Below are positions 49,212-55,856 of a stretch of 64,000 nucleotides of DNA, one piece after another; within the stretch, counting starts at the first letter, position 1, and each line of letters starts with the position of its first letter. The notes beneath the pieces are model-generated. The model worked only from the letters and a program-made list of their open reading frames with translations, was not told where the DNA came from and did not search any database. The DNA lies in assembly GCA_910584385.1 (NCBI GenBank), contig CAJUAK010000006.1, positions 41,546 to 105,545 of the forward strand. Direction: 5' to 3'. The stretch is from an uncultured Alphaproteobacteria bacterium (GTDB lineage: Bacteria > Pseudomonadota > Alphaproteobacteria > RF32 > CAG-239). Position numbers and translations under genes: made by a program.

Positions 49212-49835
49212 CTATTTCATTTCTTCGCGGGAAGCGACAATATGGTCAATCAGGCCAAAGGCCTTCGCTTCTTCAGGAGACATAAAATTATCCCTTTCCA
49301 TTGCTTTTTCAACCACGGATAATTTCTGTCCCGTATGGTGTACATATATTTGGTTTAAACGTTTTTTCAATTTCAGAATCTCATTCGCCTGGATTTCAAT
49401 ATCCGTTGCCTGCCCTTTGACACCGCCTGAAGGCTGGTGAATCATAATCCGAGAATTTGGCAGGGAAAAGCGTTTGCCTTTCGTACCGCCTGCAAGCAAA
49501 AGGGAACCCATTGAGCAGGCCTGGCCGATGCAAAGCGTGTTTACGTCGCAGGAAATGTATTGCATTGTATCATACATCGCCATTCCGGATGTTACAATTC
49601 CCCCCGGCGAATTGATATAAAGGTAAATATCTTTTTTGGGATTTTCAGATTCCAAAAACAGCAGCTGTGCGCAAACGAGGGAAGAAACCTCATCATTCAC
49701 TTCCCCGGTCAAGAAAATAATCCTTTCTTTGAGCAAGCGGGAAAAAATATCAAAAGAGCGTTCACCGCGCGATGTTTGTTCAATAACCATCGGCACCAGG
49801 GAATTTTTTATAGCGTCCATTTTTCCTCCAGACAT
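49212..49835 (-). CDS. clpP: ATP-dependent Clp protease proteolytic subunit
   Basis: 207 aa with the catalytic triad context ([14 protein letters not shown]). Confidence 0.95.
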
Positions 49836-49949
49836 ATTTTATTCTTTTTCAACAACTAACAATTACTGTGGATAAAGATAACATAATTTATTCAACAAAT
49901 TATTAATAGTTTAAACTTTTTTTAAGTTGCCCCATAGAAGGATTTTACC

Positions 49950-51500
49950 ATGAAAACAGCTATAATTATCGGAGCCGGACCAGCCGGGTTAGCCGCGGCT
50001 ATGGAGCTGTTGGACAAGACGGATATCAAACCTGTTATCGTAGAGGCAGAAGATTTTGTCGGGGGCATTGCCTGCACTATTGATTACAAAGGCAATAAAA
50101 TGGATATGGGCGGCCACCGCTTTTTTACAAAATCAGAAAGAGTTAACACATGGTGGCGCAGCCTTTTGCCGCCTCAAAGCGCACCGGCCGCCGACGATAT
50201 TTTGCTTGGGCGCCCCGTTCCCGGCCTGTCTTCCGGCGGCGCCGATCCTGAAGCTGATGATGAGGTTATGCTTTCCAGGCCAAGAATTTCCAGAATTTAT
50301 TATCTGAAGCGCTTCTTCGATTACCCGGTAAAACTAAACATGAAAACAATCCGGGGCCTTGGGACATGGAAAATTTGCGAGATAGGGCTTTCTTATTTAA
50401 AAACCTTATTTTTTAAAAGGAAAGAAAAATCTTTGGAAGATTTTTTTATCAACCGTTTTGGCAATGAGTTATATTTAACGTTTTTCAAAGATTACACCGA
50501 AAAATTATGGGGCATTCCCTGCTGCCGGATTGCCGCGGACTGGGGTGCCCAGCGCGTCAAGGGCATTTCCATCTGGGAAATTATAAAAGACATTGGCAAG
50601 AAAACTTTTCACATTAAATCTTCGCATACCGAAACAAGCCTGATAGAAAATTTTTCATACCCAAAATTCGGCCCCGGGCAATTATGGAATTGCGCGGCGC
50701 AAAAAATCATTCAATCCGGCGGACAGATTAACCTTGGTGAAAAAGTTACCAAAATATGCAAAAATGATAATCTCATCACGGCAATCGAAACCCAAAACGC
50801 AAAAGGCGAAAGAAAAACCTACAAAGCAGACTATTTTTTCTCTTCCATGCCAGTCAAAGATTTGATTAACATAACCAATGATGTTCCGCCTCAGGTTAAA
50901 GAAACTGCCGATGGTCTGGTTTACAGAGATTTTATTGTTGCCGGGGTTTTGCTTGACGAGCTCGCCGTAAAAGATAAAAACAATGAAAAATTAAACATGC
51001 TCATCAAAGATACCTGGATTTATGTGCAGGAACCGGATGTCCAATTGGGGCGCGTTCAAATATTTAACAACTGGAGCCCTTACCTGCCCCGGGATTTTAA
51101 GAAACAAGTCTGGATCGGATTGGAATATTTTTGCAATGAACAAGACAGCTTGTGGAACTTGTCAGAAAAGGATTTCTGCAGCTTTGCAATTGCCGAAGCT
51201 GAAAAAATCGGACTAATAAAAAGCGCTTCCGTTATTGACTGCTGCCGGCATAAAGTGAAAAAAGCCTACCCTGCATATTTTGGCACTTACAAAAATTTTG
51301 ACACGGTTAAAGATTATGTAAATAGAATTGAAAACCTGTTTCTTATCGGGCGCAACGGCATGCACCGCTATAATAATATGGACCATTCCGTTTTGTCTGC
51401 CTTCACGGCTGTTGACAACATTGTTAGCGGAAGAAAAGATAAAAATAATATTTGGGCTGTCAACACGGAACAGGAATACCATGAAAAAAGAAACGCTTGA
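49950..51500 (+). CDS. UDP-galactopyranose mutase-family flavoprotein, long form with a low-complexity insertion
   Basis: 516 aa with the FAD Rossmann motif IIGAGPAGL. It aligns motif by motif with Glf: FVGGIACT matches [23 protein letters not shown] matches LYQALIKGYTEKQWG, and [12 protein letters not shown] matches GRLAEYKYYDMH. Confidence 0.7.
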
Positions 51501-52896
51501 TGACTTTTTAAGGTTTTATATACCCGCCGCCCTGGCTTTGTCCCTGCTCCTCTTCATGCTGGCGCAAATTTATTTGAGGCTGTATATTGATGAAGTTGAA
51601 CATATTCATTCCTCTTGGCTTATTACACAGGGGCTTGTTCCTTACCGAGATTTTTTCCAGCACCACCACCCTTTGCTGTGGTATCTGCTTTTGCCTTTGG
51701 TCAAATTTATCAACAGCGACGTTACCTTGCATTTGGCAGGCCGGTGGCTTATGTTTGCCGGTTCTTGCTGTACCTTGTTTTTTACCAAAAAAATCGCGGA
51801 ACTTTTCATAAAGCAAAAAGTTATTGTCCGGACTGCGCTTCTTTTTACATTGGCAAACCCGGTATTCATTCTGAAATCAGATATCCGGCCGGATGTTTTT
51901 ATGACCGCGTTCTTTTATGCCGGGCTTTATAACACTTTGTTGTATCTTGCAGATTTTCAAAGGAAACATTTAACAAGGGCTTTCTTTTTATTTGCCATTG
52001 CCTTCTTATTTCTGCAAAAAGTTTTAATTCCCTGCTTTGCCGTCGGGCTTGTCTTGTTATATTTCCTGTTTTCTAAAAAGGCTTTATGGAAGGATGTGTT
52101 TATAGCCTTTATCCCCGCCGGAATATTGCTCCTGCTGTTTTTTACATATTTTATTTTTAACGGAGCCTGGAACGCGTATTTTCAGCTTAACTGGACATTA
52201 AACCTTTTATGGCCAAGAAGCAAAGATATGGACTTGTTATCGTTTTTGGCCATTGCCTATTTTTCTTTTGCGATTATTTCATCCCTTTTCATGATTAAAA
52301 AAGAAACGGTTTCGGGAAAAATAACCGCGTTTTTATTTCTTGCCATTTTCACATTAATCCAAATAACCTGCACAGAATATTTACAATATTATTTATATGT
52401 TATACCGCTTTCCGCAATTTGCGCTGCACAGGGAATGTTTTACAATAAATATGCAAAAATTACCGGCATTTTATGGCTGAACCTGATGATATTTACAATT
52501 ATTGAAGCCGCGCTTAATCCTAATTTTTCCCTGGCCGGCGAAAAAAGCCACGACCTTTTGAGGGCGATTGAAAAACAGACAGCGCATGATGATGTTATTT
52601 TTTGCGGTTCATCAAACTTCTGCAATATGAGGCATAAAGATATCGATTATTATTGGTTTTCGCTGCACAGAGGGGCAATCCATGCTCAAAAATATATCTC
52701 CCGCCCTTATCCTGACCTGGAAAAAGCCATAAAAACAAAAATGCCTAAAATTATTTATTATAAAGAGCCTTTGTTTGATGTTGACAAGCTCATTTATGAA
52801 GACAAAACGGAATATCTTCTGCGTTTGGATAAGGATTGGCTAAAAAAATATTATGAGCCTTTGGGCTTTGAGGATTTTTGGGTTAGGAAAAAATAA
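51481..52896 (+). CDS. GT-C-fold membrane glycosyltransferase (ArnT/PMT-like)
   Basis: Start at the ATG at 51481 (MKKETLDD). About 12 TM helices with a DEVEH (DE) motif in the first extracytoplasmic loop and a ~120-aa C-terminal soluble domain. Overlaps the upstream gene by 20 nt. Confidence 0.6.
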
Positions 52897-52899
52897 GCA

Positions 52900-52930
52900 T
52901 AAAAAAACCGCCTTAAAGGCGGTTTTTTTA
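52900..52930. terminator. bidirectional terminator between the GT-C gene and tig
   Basis: ACCGCC-TTAAA-GGCGGT hairpin flanked by an A7 and a T6 run. Confidence 0.7.
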
Positions 52931-52943
52931 TGTATCGGAATGA

Positions 52944-54323
52944 TTAAGCAGATTTCTTGGCTGCTTTTTTGGCTGCAGGCTTCTTCTCGGCCTTTTCAGC
53001 TTTTCCTTCATCAAAATTATACAATTCCTCAACAGAGATAACCTTATCTGCCACTTTAGAATTGCTAATGATGTGGTCAATGATTTTTTCTTCAAAAACC
53101 GGCGCTTTCAAATTTTCAACAGCCTGTTTGTTTTTGATATAAAAATCAAATACGGCTTTTTCTTGTCCGGGATATTTCTTTGCTTCATTGGCAATTGCTT
53201 TATTAATATCCTCAGGCGTAATTGTTACTTTTGCCTGCTGTCCGATTTCAGAAAGAAGCAAGCCGAGTTTTACGCGGCGAACGGCAATATTTTTATATTC
53301 GGCCAGCAAGTCTTCTTCTTTCTTGTTTTTTTCACTTTCATCAAGCTGGTTATATTTCTTTGCCTGTTCATATTGGTCAACAATAGATTTATATTCAGCA
53401 TCGACCAAAGACTGGGGAACTTCAAAGCTGTATTCTTTATCCAAAGCATCCAGCAACTGGCGTTTCAGTTTCATGCGGGAAGCATTTTCATAATCTTCAT
53501 GAATGCGGTTTTTAATAACTTCTTTTAAGGAAGCCAAATCTTTTTCGCCGAGGGATTTGGCAAATTCGTCATCCAAAACAGTTTCTTTTGTTTCACGCAG
53601 TTCTTTAATTTCAACAGCGAAAACGGCTGCTTTTCCGGCCAAATCTTTTGCATGGTAATTTTCAGGGAATGTTACGTTTACATCCACTTTATCCCCTGCC
53701 TTTTTGCCAATCAGCTGGTCTTCAAAACCCGGGATAAAAGAACCCGAACCGAGTTCCAGAGGATAAGCATTGCCTTTGCCGCCCTGGAATTCAACGCCGT
53801 CAACAGAACCGACAAAGTCGATTACAACCGTGTCGCCTTTTTTCGCGGCGCGAGCTTCTTCAACCTTAGCAGTTTCCCTGCGGGACTGGGCTAAGTACTT
53901 CAAAGCTTTTTCAACTTCTTCCGCAGGAACTTCAGCCATATATTTTTCCAAAGAAAGCCCGGAGAAATCATTTACCTTGATTTCCGGAAGGTTATCTAAG
54001 GAAACCTCAAATTCAACATCTTTGCCGTCGGCAAAAGAAGTAATTTTAACTTCAGGCTGCATTGCGGGGCGCAGTTTTTTGTCTTTTACCAAATCTGCCG
54101 TAGCGGCACTTACAACTTCTTCCAAAACTTCGCCCATAACAGAATCTTTATATTTAGCCTTTAACATTGAAAAAGGCGCCTTGCCGGCACGGAAGCCGGG
54201 AAGCTTAACAGATTTTGAAATTTTGGTAATTTTTTCATCAACTTTTTTTGCAAAATCTTCTGCAGAAACAGTGATTTTATATGATTTTTTAAGTCCTTCA
54301 GACTTTAATTCGGTAACGTTCAT
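52944..54323 (-). CDS. tig: trigger factor
   Basis: 459 aa with a ribosome-binding N-domain (GFRAGKAP), an FKBP domain and a C-domain. Ends in a Lys/Ala-rich tail. Confidence 0.9.
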   Translation of the reverse strand: MNVTELKSEGLKKSYKITVSAEDFAKKVDEKITKISKSVKLPGFRAGKAPFSMLKAKYKDSVMGEVLEEVVSAATADLVKDKKLRPAMQPEVKITSFADGKDVEFEVSLDNLPEIKVNDFSGLSLEKYMAEVPAEEVEKALKYLAQSRRETAKVEEARAAKKGDTVVIDFVGSVDGVEFQGGKGNAYPLELGSGSFIPGFEDQLIGKKAGDKVDVNVTFPENYHAKDLAGKAAVFAVEIKELRETKETVLDDEFAKSLGEKDLASLKEVIKNRIHEDYENASRMKLKRQLLDALDKEYSFEVPQSLVDAEYKSIVDQYEQAKKYNQLDESEKNKKEEDLLAEYKNIAVRRVKLGLLLSEIGQQAKVTITPEDINKAIANEAKKYPGQEKAVFDFYIKNKQAVENLKAPVFEEKIIDHIISNSKVADKVISVEELYNFDEGKAEKAEKKPAAKKAAKKSA

Positions 54324-54370: not shown

Positions 54371-54455
54371 TGGTGCGGGCGAAGAGACTCGAACTCTTAA
54401 GCCTCGCGGCACCAGATCCTAAGTCTGGCGTGTCTACCAATTTCACCACGCCCGC
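54371..54455 (-). tRNA. tRNA-Leu (anticodon UAG)
   Basis: Reverse complement is GCGGGCGTGGTGAAATTGGTAGACACGCCAGACTTAGGATCTGGTGCCGCGAGGCTTAAGAGTTCGAGTCTCTTCGCCCGCACCA. It has a long variable arm and an encoded CCA. Confidence 0.9.
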
Positions 54456-54593: not shown

Positions 54594-55856
54594 GTGGTTT
54601 CATATAAGCCTTTATGCAGCATTTTATTCCCTGTTGCGGCCGCTTCCCTGCTCTGCGGCTGCAGTGTTTTTGATTCACCTGCCTCAAAAGCAAAAAGCGA
54701 TACACGCTACTTTTGGCAGGATGACGGTTCCGGCGAAGCCAATTTGGCTACGGTCGCCTATTCACAGGGAGATTTTGACGCTGCCGAGACACATGTCATC
54801 AAGGCTTTGCAAATTGACCCGCGCCAACGCCAGGCTCTCATGGTCGGCGGATTGCTGTATGAACAGCTCGGCCGCCCTAACCGCGCACGCCAGTATTATG
54901 AAGATATCATCATTTACGGCGGCGATGCGACAACAATTTTAGGAACCAGCAGCGGAACGCCTGAAAAGATGACCGATGTCGCTAAAAAACGCCTGCGCTT
55001 GATAAATGTCCACCAGACAAAACTTATTGTGGAAGATGAAAACGGCGAAAAAGTTTTTAACATCAGCGAAGAAGGCGGGCAAAAGCAGCGCCGTTCTGCT
55101 ATTGAACAGGCTCTCTTCCGCCAAAATAAAAAACAGCAGGCTGACCAACGCGTTCCCAGCAGCGCCGAACAGCTGGAAGCCGTCGAGGTCCTTTTCACGC
55201 CCAATGAACAAAATATCATCTCCCGCTTCCTTATATTAAAAGAGCTGGCTGAAAAAGACTTAATCACCAAGGAAGAGTTTTTGACGCGGCGCATGGCGAA
55301 TATCGGCGGGCTATTGCCCTTGACAAACCTTCCGCCCGCAACAGCGGCGGACAAATCCGTTCCTTCGCCTGATTTGATTATTGAGAGAATCGGCGTATTA
55401 AAAGATGCCGTCGAGGCCAGAGCCATTACCCCTCAGGAATTTTCTGCCGAAAGAGATACGATTATCGAGGCTCTCCTTCCTCCAAACCCGCGCAACAGGC
55501 TTAAAAGGAAATCCCCGCCTTCTGACATTTTGGAAGCGGCAAAGGATTTGCGCAAGCTTGAAATGCTACAGGAACTCGGGCTGATTACCGAAAAAGAAAA
55601 AATAAAAGAAAAGAAAGAAATTGAAAAACATATTGGCATTAACCAAAAGGCGCCGGCAGAAAAGCTTCCTGAAAAAAAGATGGAAGTGGCCGAAACAAAA
55701 ATCGAGCTTCAGGCCCCTTCTGAAAGTGATAATTCCGATACCGTAAAAACGATTGTTATTGAAGAAGTCAAGGAAGAAGCCGCCTCTTCTTTTGCCCCTT
55801 CTAAAAATGCAATTATGCCGGAACCATTAATTCCTAACGTTTCCAGCCCTTTTTAA
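54594..55856 (+). CDS. lipoprotein with an N-terminal TPR-like region and three SHOCT-like repeats
   Basis: 420 aa with the lipobox LLCGC. TPR-like segment AYSQGDFDAAETHVIKALQIDP. Repeated L..L.elGlIT.eEF motifs (ILKELAEKDLITKEEF, ITPQEFSAERDTIIEALL, LQELGLITEKEKIKEKKEIEKHIG). Confidence 0.55.
   Translation: MVSYKPLCSILFPVAAASLLCGCSVFDSPASKAKSDTRYFWQDDGSGEANLATVAYSQGDFDAAETHVIKALQIDPRQRQALMVGGLLYEQLGRPNRARQYYEDIIIYGGDATTILGTSSGTPEKMTDVAKKRLRLINVHQTKLIVEDENGEKVFNISEEGGQKQRRSAIEQALFRQNKKQQADQRVPSSAEQLEAVEVLFTPNEQNIISRFLILKELAEKDLITKEEFLTRRMANIGGLLPLTNLPPATAADKSVPSPDLIIERIGVLKDAVEARAITPQEFSAERDTIIEALLPPNPRNRLKRKSPPSDILEAAKDLRKLEMLQELGLITEKEKIKEKKEIEKHIGINQKAPAEKLPEKKMEVAETKIELQAPSESDNSDTVKTIVIEEVKEEAASSFAPSKNAIMPEPLIPNVSSPF

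Follow-up and report, generated by a model that had tools for sequence, protein, structure and literature searches.

Two Genes between clpP and tig

The subject of this study is a two-gene cassette in a 64,000-nucleotide stretch of DNA from an uncultured alphaproteobacterium (contig CAJUAK010000006.1 of assembly GCA_910584385.1, positions 41,546 to 105,545; hereafter the window). Two overlapping genes on the plus strand, open reading frame 1 (ORF1; 49950..51500, 516 aa) and ORF2 (51481..52896, 471 aa), lie there between clpP (49212..49835; Pfam CLP_protease, E 2e-86; 81–87% identity in relatives) and tig, the gene for trigger factor (52944..54323; Pfam Trigger_N, FKBP_C, and Trigger_C), which are both on the minus strand and form the conserved flanks of the interval. 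ORF1 is predicted to encode a cytoplasmic flavin adenine dinucleotide (FAD) enzyme of the PRK07208.1-2 family with the fold and active site of a UDP-galactopyranose mutase (UGM), and ORF2 a polytopic glycosyltransferase of the GT-C fold, similar to ArnT and PMT_2, with a small C-terminal periplasmic domain (approximately residues 367–471). We regard both as real genes because both have many homologues. The window is identical (100%) over 13.5 kb to a contig of the metagenome-assembled genome GCA_948554095.1, and its relatives, which include 'Candidatus Scatocola' and CAG:495, are gut Alphaproteobacteria.

The 20-nt overlap of the two frames (51481..51500, plus strand, reading ...AGGAATACCATGAAAAAAGAAACGCTTGA) probably reflects translational coupling of the pair, and comparable overlaps of 17–29 nt between flavoenzyme and GT-C genes occur in three homologous loci (L004, L170, and L173). 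For ORF2 we prefer the ATG at 51481, which has AGGA 5 nt upstream and is backed by homologue alignments and public gene calls, over the TTG at 51328 that would give the longest version. Convergent ORF2 and tig are separated by a predicted bidirectional intrinsic terminator (52898..52932), a hairpin with a perfect 16-bp stem, AAAAAAACCGCC-TTTAA-GGCGGTTTTTTT, and T runs flanking it on both strands. A first-pass annotation of this DNA had correctly described the two overlapping plus-strand genes and had placed bidirectional terminators on either side of them; the hairpin at the ORF2/tig side is the sole one that we detected, and at the clpP side (49836..49949) there is instead a 114-bp, AT-rich control region from which clpP and ORF1 diverge. 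A sigma-70 consensus scan of this spacer returned no promoter for either gene. It does contain, on the minus strand upstream of clpP (49875–49906), an element of ~32 nt (TTAATAATTTGTTGAATAAATTATGTTATCTT; alignment core TTAATAATTTGTTGAATA..TGTTATCTT) that is conserved in all relatives examined, whether or not they carry a cassette, and that is probably the clpP promoter despite not fitting the consensus scan.

A Flavoenzyme with a UGM-Like Active Site

The NCBIfam model NF005546 (PRK07208.1-2, 'hypothetical protein') matches ORF1 with 783.3 bits against a cut-off of 418 (residues 2–514 of the protein and positions 5–525 of 527 in the model), and the family to which ORF1 belongs comprises more than 8000 proteins at E<1e-10, with a best non-self match of 62% identity. 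Among solved structures, sequence similarity over the full length is confined to the eukaryotic-type UGMs of Trypanosoma cruzi and Aspergillus fumigatus (E 2e-15 with the single protein, 9e-20 with the family profile). An AlphaFold2 model of ORF1, with an overall predicted local distance difference test score (pLDDT) of 78, has the three-domain UGM fold, modelled weakly in the helical domain, and retrieves UGM first in Foldseek (E 7e-24, TM-scores 0.67/0.74). UGMs in fact fill the first 34 places among the matches to solved structures (E 7e-24 to 2e-20, TM-scores 0.62–0.74).

The roles of the contact residues in A. fumigatus UGM (AfUGM) are given in Table 3 and the text of PMC3624792, and we mapped them onto ORF1 by hidden Markov model/profile alignment to the structures 3uka and 4dsg, judging invariance over 26–30 family members. 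ORF1 has counterparts of the contacts to diphosphate, uracil, and flavin: the five diphosphate contacts R182, Y317, R327, Y419, and Y453 correspond to R202, Y358, R368, Y440, and Y474, both uracil-stacking residues are retained (Y104 and F158 as Y125 and F178), the flavin contact R447 is R468, and the histidine loop G61-G62-H63, in which H63 contacts the flavin and the two glycines are typical of eukaryotic UGMs, is G54-G55-H56. W167 is likewise present (W187), as is the galactopyranose (Galp) contact N457 (N475/476). The residues invariant across the ORF1 family (G54-G55-H56, Y125, F178, Y182-T183-x-K185-x-W187, R202, Y358, R368, Y440, R468, Y474, and N475/N476) include all of these positions. 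The position of AfUGM N163 is a Thr in ORF1, and the UGM of Deinococcus radiodurans also has a Thr (T180) there (PMC3624792).

ORF1 thus resembles the eukaryotic-type UGMs (3uka, 3ukh, and 4dsg) in its three-domain fold, GGH loop, length of ~500 aa, diphosphate-binding Arg and Tyr residues, uracil-stacking aromatics, and equivalents of W167, R447, and N457. It is unlike them in being only 18–21% identical, in falling below the Glf and GLF model thresholds, in having a Thr in place of N163, as bacterial UGMs do, in carrying an added segment at residues ~70–112, and in that its family has GtrA and GT-C proteins as genomic partners and not cytoplasmic galactofuranosyltransferases, the activity of ORF1 itself being a prediction. 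The added segment, which is rich in Pro, Ala, and Asp and which the first-pass annotation had singled out as an insertion, is indeed extra relative to solved UGMs and is well modelled, but it is conserved across the whole family (D82, D83, L86, and P100 are invariant) and is therefore not peculiar to ORF1.

By profile alignment and predicted structure, then, ORF1 is a UGM-superfamily flavoenzyme with a UGM-like active site, and it most likely converts a UDP-hexopyranose to the furanose form, with UDP-Galp as the default guess for the substrate. We consider it improbable that ORF1 is instead an ordinary redox flavoenzyme of the amine-oxidase/protoporphyrinogen-oxidase/phytoene-desaturase superfamily, for example one that (de)saturates a polyprenyl carrier or oxidizes an envelope lipid or amine and is linked to the GT-C protein via the lipid carrier. 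Such a role would agree with the Pfam matches of ORF1 (Amino_oxidase and NAD_binding_8 alone, both on the N-terminal Rossmann segment only), with the names that NCBI and JGI give to its relatives ('NAD(P)/FAD-dependent oxidoreductase' or 'protoporphyrinogen oxidase'), with weak matches to CrtI- and HpnE-type models, and with the appearance of protoporphyrinogen oxidase as the second structural tier in Foldseek (E 6e-19); however, the matches to redox families are confined to residues 1–70, the full-length similarity is to UGM, and the diphosphate-binding Arg and Tyr residues of UGM are invariant in the ORF1 family.

Two unusually long flavoenzyme homologues (P0078, 660 aa, and P0156, 724 aa) were considered as fusions and rejected; they contain internal tandem duplications of 140–250 residues that are most likely an assembly artefact.

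A Predicted GT-C Glycosyltransferase

ORF2 has no Pfam or NCBIfam match at E<=0.01 and no sequence match among Protein Data Bank structures. Profile searches of solved structures with the ORF2 family and with the C1 family also returned no matches, leaving the fold search as the informative one. The AlphaFold2 model of ORF2, built with 65 homologues, is confident (pLDDT 90.6, predicted TM-score 0.92) and matches only GT-C enzymes in Foldseek, with ArnT first (5f15, E 4.8e-6, TMq 0.61; also 5ezm), followed by STT3, ALG9/12, AglB, EmbA/B/C, Pmt4, AftA/B, and DPY19, all at probability 1.00. Directly after the first transmembrane helix (residues 6–31), in the first extracytoplasmic loop where GT-C enzymes have conserved acidic residues, ORF2 carries the motif D37-E38-x-E40-H41 (DEVEH), of which D37 and E40 are invariant in the 65 homologues. 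The family also has an invariant 15-residue block, and the further positions F58, H62, P64, P137, D138, Q179, K180, P422, and Y458 are invariant as well.

Because the fold matches GT-C enzymes alone and the acidic motif is invariant, we assign ORF2 to the GT-C glycosyltransferases on the strength of its predicted fold and not of a Pfam threshold. In an exhaustive search of 1.84 billion cluster representatives, 682 matched ORF2 at E<1e-10, and the identity of none of them exceeded 33%. Homologues of ORF2 are only 28–33% identical to it, many of those at 28–32% carry PMT_2 (PF13231) and are named GT39 or ArnT, and the homologue at locus L007 reaches 24 bits against a cut-off of 26.1; ORF2 itself stays below the PMT_2/ArnT model thresholds. 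The earlier description of ORF2 as a GT-C enzyme with a DE motif is upheld by these results. The placement of ORF1 in the UGM superfamily is supported by sequence profile and by fold, and the GT-C assignment of ORF2 by fold, with both proteins under the Glf, GLF, and PMT_2 thresholds that apply to them.

Linkage of the Flavoenzyme, GT-C Proteins, and GtrA across Bacteria

Seven GT-C homologues were looked up without reference to the flavoenzyme, and a PRK07208-type flavoenzyme lies beside the GT-C gene in five of them, which come from five distantly related bacterial groups. The frames overlap in a metagenomic locus (P0004), in a member of the Sedimentisphaerales (P0045), and in a member of the Babeliales (P0025), where a true GtrB follows (5ekp, E 1e-69); in a gammaproteobacterium (P0039) the flavoenzyme is one gene away, and in a cyanobacterium (P0010) it is three genes upstream and fused to a GtrA domain. 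The remaining two (P0002 and P0058) have none. Adjacency conserved across phyla in this way indicates that the pairing of ORF1 and ORF2 is functional and not accidental. At two homologous loci the pair is accompanied by a family 2 glycosyltransferase (GT2): flavoenzyme, GT-C, and GtrB occur together in the Babeliales locus just mentioned (L170), and a GT2 similar to AglJ and dolichol-phosphate-mannose synthase (DPMS) lies shortly downstream of the pair in L004.

A second survey started from the flavoenzyme and covered 75 metagenomic loci, many of them on truncated contigs and with transmembrane (TM) helices counted by a crude hydropathy scan. On these terms, a polytopic protein (at least 7 TM helices) lies within two genes of the flavoenzyme in 36 loci and GtrA within two genes in 13. 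The polytopic partner usually falls outside the ORF2 subfamily, and strict coupling of the flavoenzyme to that subfamily was rejected, a close ORF2-family member being found downstream in 2 of 80 metagenomic loci. Identities among flavoenzymes are 50–62% vs. ~30% for the GT-C proteins, and the flavoenzyme is therefore the conserved, slowly evolving part of the system, combined with fast-evolving or interchangeable GT-C-like partners and with GtrA.

The link to GtrA is most direct in a fusion on a cyanobacterial contig (L169:464-2350, ~625 aa), in which a GtrA TM domain forms the C-terminus of the flavoenzyme. All of the 120 best matches to this fusion carry both domains, with Chroococcidiopsis, Nostocales, and Gloeobacter in their range, and they are annotated only as 'GtrA family protein', 'amine oxidase', or 'protoporphyrinogen oxidase/putative flippase GtrA'. 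Literature searches on GtrA together with an FAD-dependent oxidoreductase and on cyanobacterial GtrA together with an amine oxidase found nothing on this flavoenzyme family.

In several unrelated loci (L007:12985-14028; also L096, L100, L102, L128, and L164), a GalE-like short-chain dehydrogenase/reductase (SDR) stands beside the flavoenzyme; its nearest structure is a UDP-glucose 4-epimerase (4zrm, E 1e-26), and its conserved C-terminal tail, ...MG(V/I)IR(V/L)LKWLS, may be a membrane-association helix. Additionally, three loci from other gut Alphaproteobacteria (L165–L167) hold a bare flavoenzyme and GT-C pair between pgk and mlaC-leuS-lptE-holA, beside genes for outer-membrane lipid and lipopolysaccharide (LPS) transport.

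A Proposed Route for Furanose Transfer in the Periplasm

We hypothesize, with a confidence somewhat above even, that ORF1 and ORF2 form a two-gene envelope-glycosylation module in which the UGM-type enzyme feeds a furanose via a lipid carrier to the ArnT-like enzyme. In the cytoplasm, ORF1 would convert a UDP-hexopyranose to the UDP-furanose (UDP-galactofuranose, UDP-Galf, by default). A GT2 of the GtrB/ArnC type would then load the furanose onto undecaprenyl phosphate, a step that is needed since a GT-C enzyme cannot use UDP-furanose directly, and a GtrA-type protein is the candidate flippase for the lipid-linked sugar. In the periplasm, ORF2 would transfer the furanose to an envelope acceptor; candidates are LPS, lipid A or core, other glycans, and proteins. 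We infer the mutase reaction, which sugar it yields, the lipid-linked intermediate, and the acceptor; a polyprenyl-phosphate-linked donor for ORF2 is suggested by its fold and by the GtrA and GtrB neighbours in homologous loci. The first-pass annotation had already proposed that the pair makes and transfers a furanose donor, and the conservation of the pairing across phyla agrees with that proposal; what it left out is the polyprenyl-phosphate step, the gene for which is not in the window.

To our knowledge, all bacterial Galf transfer described so far depends on cytoplasmic enzymes that use UDP-Galf, and the papers that mention Galf together with GT-C enzymes were set aside since they concern this cytoplasmic use. 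The conserved flavoenzyme and GT-C module, to which GtrA is added or fused in many lineages, points instead to a periplasmic route for furanose addition, and such a route would give a very large 'hypothetical' family (>8000 relatives) a testable function.

Several observations weigh against this pathway. The Glf model TIGR00031 scores ORF1 at 36.5 bits, below its cut-off of 303.75, Pfam GLF (PF03275) has no match to ORF1 at E<=1, and among 30 ORF1 relatives GLF gives sub-threshold matches in 17 (best E 0.024). ORF1 is therefore not a canonical Glf, an identity that we rejected, and of the earlier claim that it is a Glf-like UGM with strong motif matches, the superfamily, the fold, and the contact residues survive, with PRK07208.1-2 in place of Glf/PF03275. 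In the ORF1 model, the helical domain that binds the substrate (residues 119–230) reaches a pLDDT of only 43–65, and literature searches on PRK07208 found neither a paper on the family nor a member with known function. Nor did they turn up a description of a lipid-linked hexofuranose that serves as a donor in the periplasm. Only 5 of the 75 flavoenzyme loci, truncated as many of those are, have a GT2 of any kind within 8 kb, which is awkward for the UDP-furanose route since that route needs one, and a GT2 as an obligatory neighbour of the flavoenzyme was rejected on this count. Finally, tblastn with the GtrA, GtrB-like, SDR, and other cassette proteins of relatives found none of them in the 64-kb window, where of the three components (GT2, flippase, and GT-C) only the GT-C is present.

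The main alternative is that the flavoenzyme acts on a polyprenyl-phosphate-linked sugar, either by isomerizing the ring on the carrier or by an oxidation paired with SDR reduction as in DprE1/DprE2, with GtrA holding or flipping the lipid and the GT-C enzyme consuming the product. The operons of GtrA, flavoenzyme, and polytopic protein, which usually lack a GT2, would fit this alternative, as would the flavoenzyme-GtrA fusions conserved across cyanobacteria. The Pfam name of PF04138 (GtrA/DPMS, transmembrane domain) ties GtrA to dolichol-phosphate-mannose synthase, and a domain of this type is the carrier-binding membrane part of an archaeal dolichol-phosphate-mannose-type synthase. Some loci add the tailed SDR, and the L007 set of GtrA, flavoenzyme, GT-C, and SDR parallels the mycobacterial Rv3789, DprE1, DprE2, and AftA. 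PMC11127046 sets out what Rv3789 and DprE1/E2 do, and it also presents a GalE-like SDR whose most probable substrate is undecaprenyl-phosphate-ribofuranose.

Against a lipid-linked substrate, two UGM features are invariant in the ORF1 family, the residues that stack on uracil and the Y-T-x-K-x-W motif, which argues for a bound uridine, and an SDR occurs in only 6 of the 75 loci and is absent from the window. Additionally, the fold of ORF1 is that of UGM, whereas DprE1 has a fold of the VAO type. We consider conversion on the carrier unlikely as an account of the cassette and prefer the nucleotide-sugar route set out above.

The mycobacterial pathway for decaprenyl-phospho-arabinofuranose (GtrA-like Rv3789, DprE1, DprE2, and AftA) is instructive both ways: a set of GtrA-type protein, FAD enzyme, SDR, and GT-C enzyme recurs in L007 and several metagenomic loci, whereas the FAD enzyme has the UGM fold here, the SDR is in neither the window nor most of the loci, and the substrate is probably a UDP-sugar. 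A second comparison is that with the three-component glycosylation systems (GtrA/GtrB/GtrC; ArnC/ArnE-F/ArnT; CsbB/GtcA/YfhO; Pgf of Streptococcus mutans; and the pentofuranose systems of Kelly et al. 2024, PMC11127046), with which the cassette shares the ArnT-like GT-C fold of ORF2; loci homologous to it also have the GtrA flippase and a GT2 of the GtrB/ArnC/PgfS type. In the pentofuranose systems (PMC11127046), as proposed here, an auxiliary cytoplasmic enzyme sets the donor sugar, an SDR epimerase there and the putative mutase ORF1 here. The cassette is unlike the three-component systems in that its auxiliary enzyme is a UGM-like flavoenzyme and that the window holds only two components, and literature searches did not turn up any hexofuranose described as taking a three-component route.

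These comparisons expose a link between a large uncharacterized flavoenzyme family, GtrA, and GT-C enzymes and suggest that the cassette is a variant of the periplasmic glycosylation systems. A broader and more doubtful extension, which we offer tentatively, is that PRK07208-type flavoenzymes are the signature of a widespread, undescribed branch of extracytoplasmic glycosylation, coupled to GtrA and supplying lipid-linked hexofuranose to diverse GT-C enzymes, perhaps by converting the ring on the polyprenyl-phosphate itself. If this were true, the branch would be the hexose counterpart of the pentofuranose three-component systems and would provide the first lipid-linked donor of the Galf type. 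Furanose sugars are absent from mammals and are therefore immunogenic, and their synthesis is a drug target.

The tig–clpP Spacer as a Variable Locus

To place the cassette in its clade, 80 species-level relatives were fetched with the Tig protein (67–78% identity) and their neighbouring genes were mapped, with tig and clpP both in reach in 38. In 13 of these, tig and clpP are adjacent and ~200 bp apart, and extra DNA therefore does sit in the spacer of the window. In the other 25 the spacer holds 1.8–6.9 kb of other glycan-modification genes (GtrA, GT2, methyltransferase, sulfatase-family, and polytopic proteins). Two cassette types recur, one with GtrA, one or two polytopic proteins of 550 aa, a GT2, a methyltransferase, and a GtrB-like GT2, and the other with one or more polytopic proteins of 570 aa, a GtrB-like GT2, a methyltransferase, and a sulfatase-family protein; by hhalign, the polytopic families of both types are distantly homologous to that of ORF2 (probability 96.5 and 96.3, E 7e-10 and 2e-9).

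Two relatives have genes of the same kinds as the window. The L007 spacer contains a flavoenzyme (58% identical) and a GT-C gene (31%) in the opposite orientation, together with GtrA and with a GalE-like SDR that follows the pair, and in L168, from a related species (ClpX 85% identical), a flavoenzyme (62%) diverges from clpP as it does here and is followed by quite different sugar genes. The cassettes are bounded by a point just past the tig terminator and another a few tens of bases before the conserved clpP-upstream element. An alignment of the junctions for flanking repeats showed this terminator and this element only, and no integrase, transposase, or flanking repeats were seen among the recurrent genes of the spacer or at its junctions, although no dedicated search for them was made.

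The composition of the cassette is native. The GC content of ORF2 (0.379) is below the mean of the other window genes (0.449), with tig at 0.399, and GC at third codon positions (GC3) is 0.46 and 0.42 for ORF1 and ORF2 vs. 0.47 +/- 0.04 for the window, with tig lower still at 0.354. For both genes, GC, GC3, and codon-usage divergence lie inside the spread of 35 other window genes. We hence rejected a foreign composition, for which the first-pass annotation had suggested a check, the low GC of ORF2 being matched by tig and fitting a hydrophobic membrane protein.

A recent chance acquisition by horizontal transfer, at a site without special property, might be argued from the 13 relatives in which tig and clpP adjoin, from the GC of ORF2, and from the lack of any ORF2 homologue above 33% identity in the exhaustive search. 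We think this quite unlikely given the frequency with which other glycan cassettes occupy the same site, the presence of both gene types there in L007 and of a flavoenzyme in the same divergent spot beside clpP in L168, the codon usage, the absence (at the level of scrutiny noted above) of integrases, transposases, and repeats, and the identical gene context on 24 of 24 contigs read that carry the exact ORF1. Since the arrangement is the same on every ORF1 contig, the composition is native, and relatives hold other cassettes, the gene-context evidence identifies the cassette not as a lone insertion but as an allele of a slot that is hypervariable across the clade and takes alternative GT-C-based glycan cassettes. 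The earlier view of an accessory cassette inserted into the tig-clpP-clpX cluster accords with the 13 relatives in which tig and clpP adjoin but gives only part of the picture.

Variable surface-glycan loci with housekeeping flanks are well known from the enterobacterial O-antigen locus (galF–gnd) and the pneumococcal cps locus (dexB–aliA). Like these, the tig–clpP locus has fixed flanks, alternative glycan gene sets that are non-homologous or highly diverged between species, and native composition, and no mobile-element genes were seen among its recurrent cassette genes. By analogy, the cassettes may be exchanged by recombination through the conserved housekeeping flanks. The locus is unlike them in that its flanks are tig and clpP, its contents are modification modules of 2–7 kb and not full polysaccharide clusters, and a third of the species have an empty spacer. 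The tig–clpP spacer looks like a marker of surface-glycan type, and perhaps of phage and immune specificity, in abundant uncultured gut Alphaproteobacteria, and typing it from metagenomes would be easy given the conserved genes on either side.

Four further relatives (L023, L030, L045, and L046) have no clpP within 8 kb of tig, and tig and clpP are therefore split by rearrangement there. Downstream of tig these loci have no glycan genes; their neighbours, judged by eye only, are rubrerythrin-type, flavodiiron-type, radical-SAM, and 4-alpha-glucanotransferase-like proteins.

Genes Flanking the Interval

clpX precedes clpP in the window and is followed by topA and dprA on the other strand, so that lon does not adjoin clpX, as had been pointed out in the first-pass annotation. 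Immediately upstream of tig is a tRNA-Leu(tag) gene (54371..54455, minus strand). Since the variable slot adjoins the opposite end of tig, this tRNA gene is not the insertion site. A 420-aa tetratricopeptide repeat protein (54594–55856, plus strand) also adjoins tig and is conserved yet fast-evolving, with 45–59% identity in relatives vs. 80–86% for prfC (full-length matches), and it is missing from about a dozen of them.

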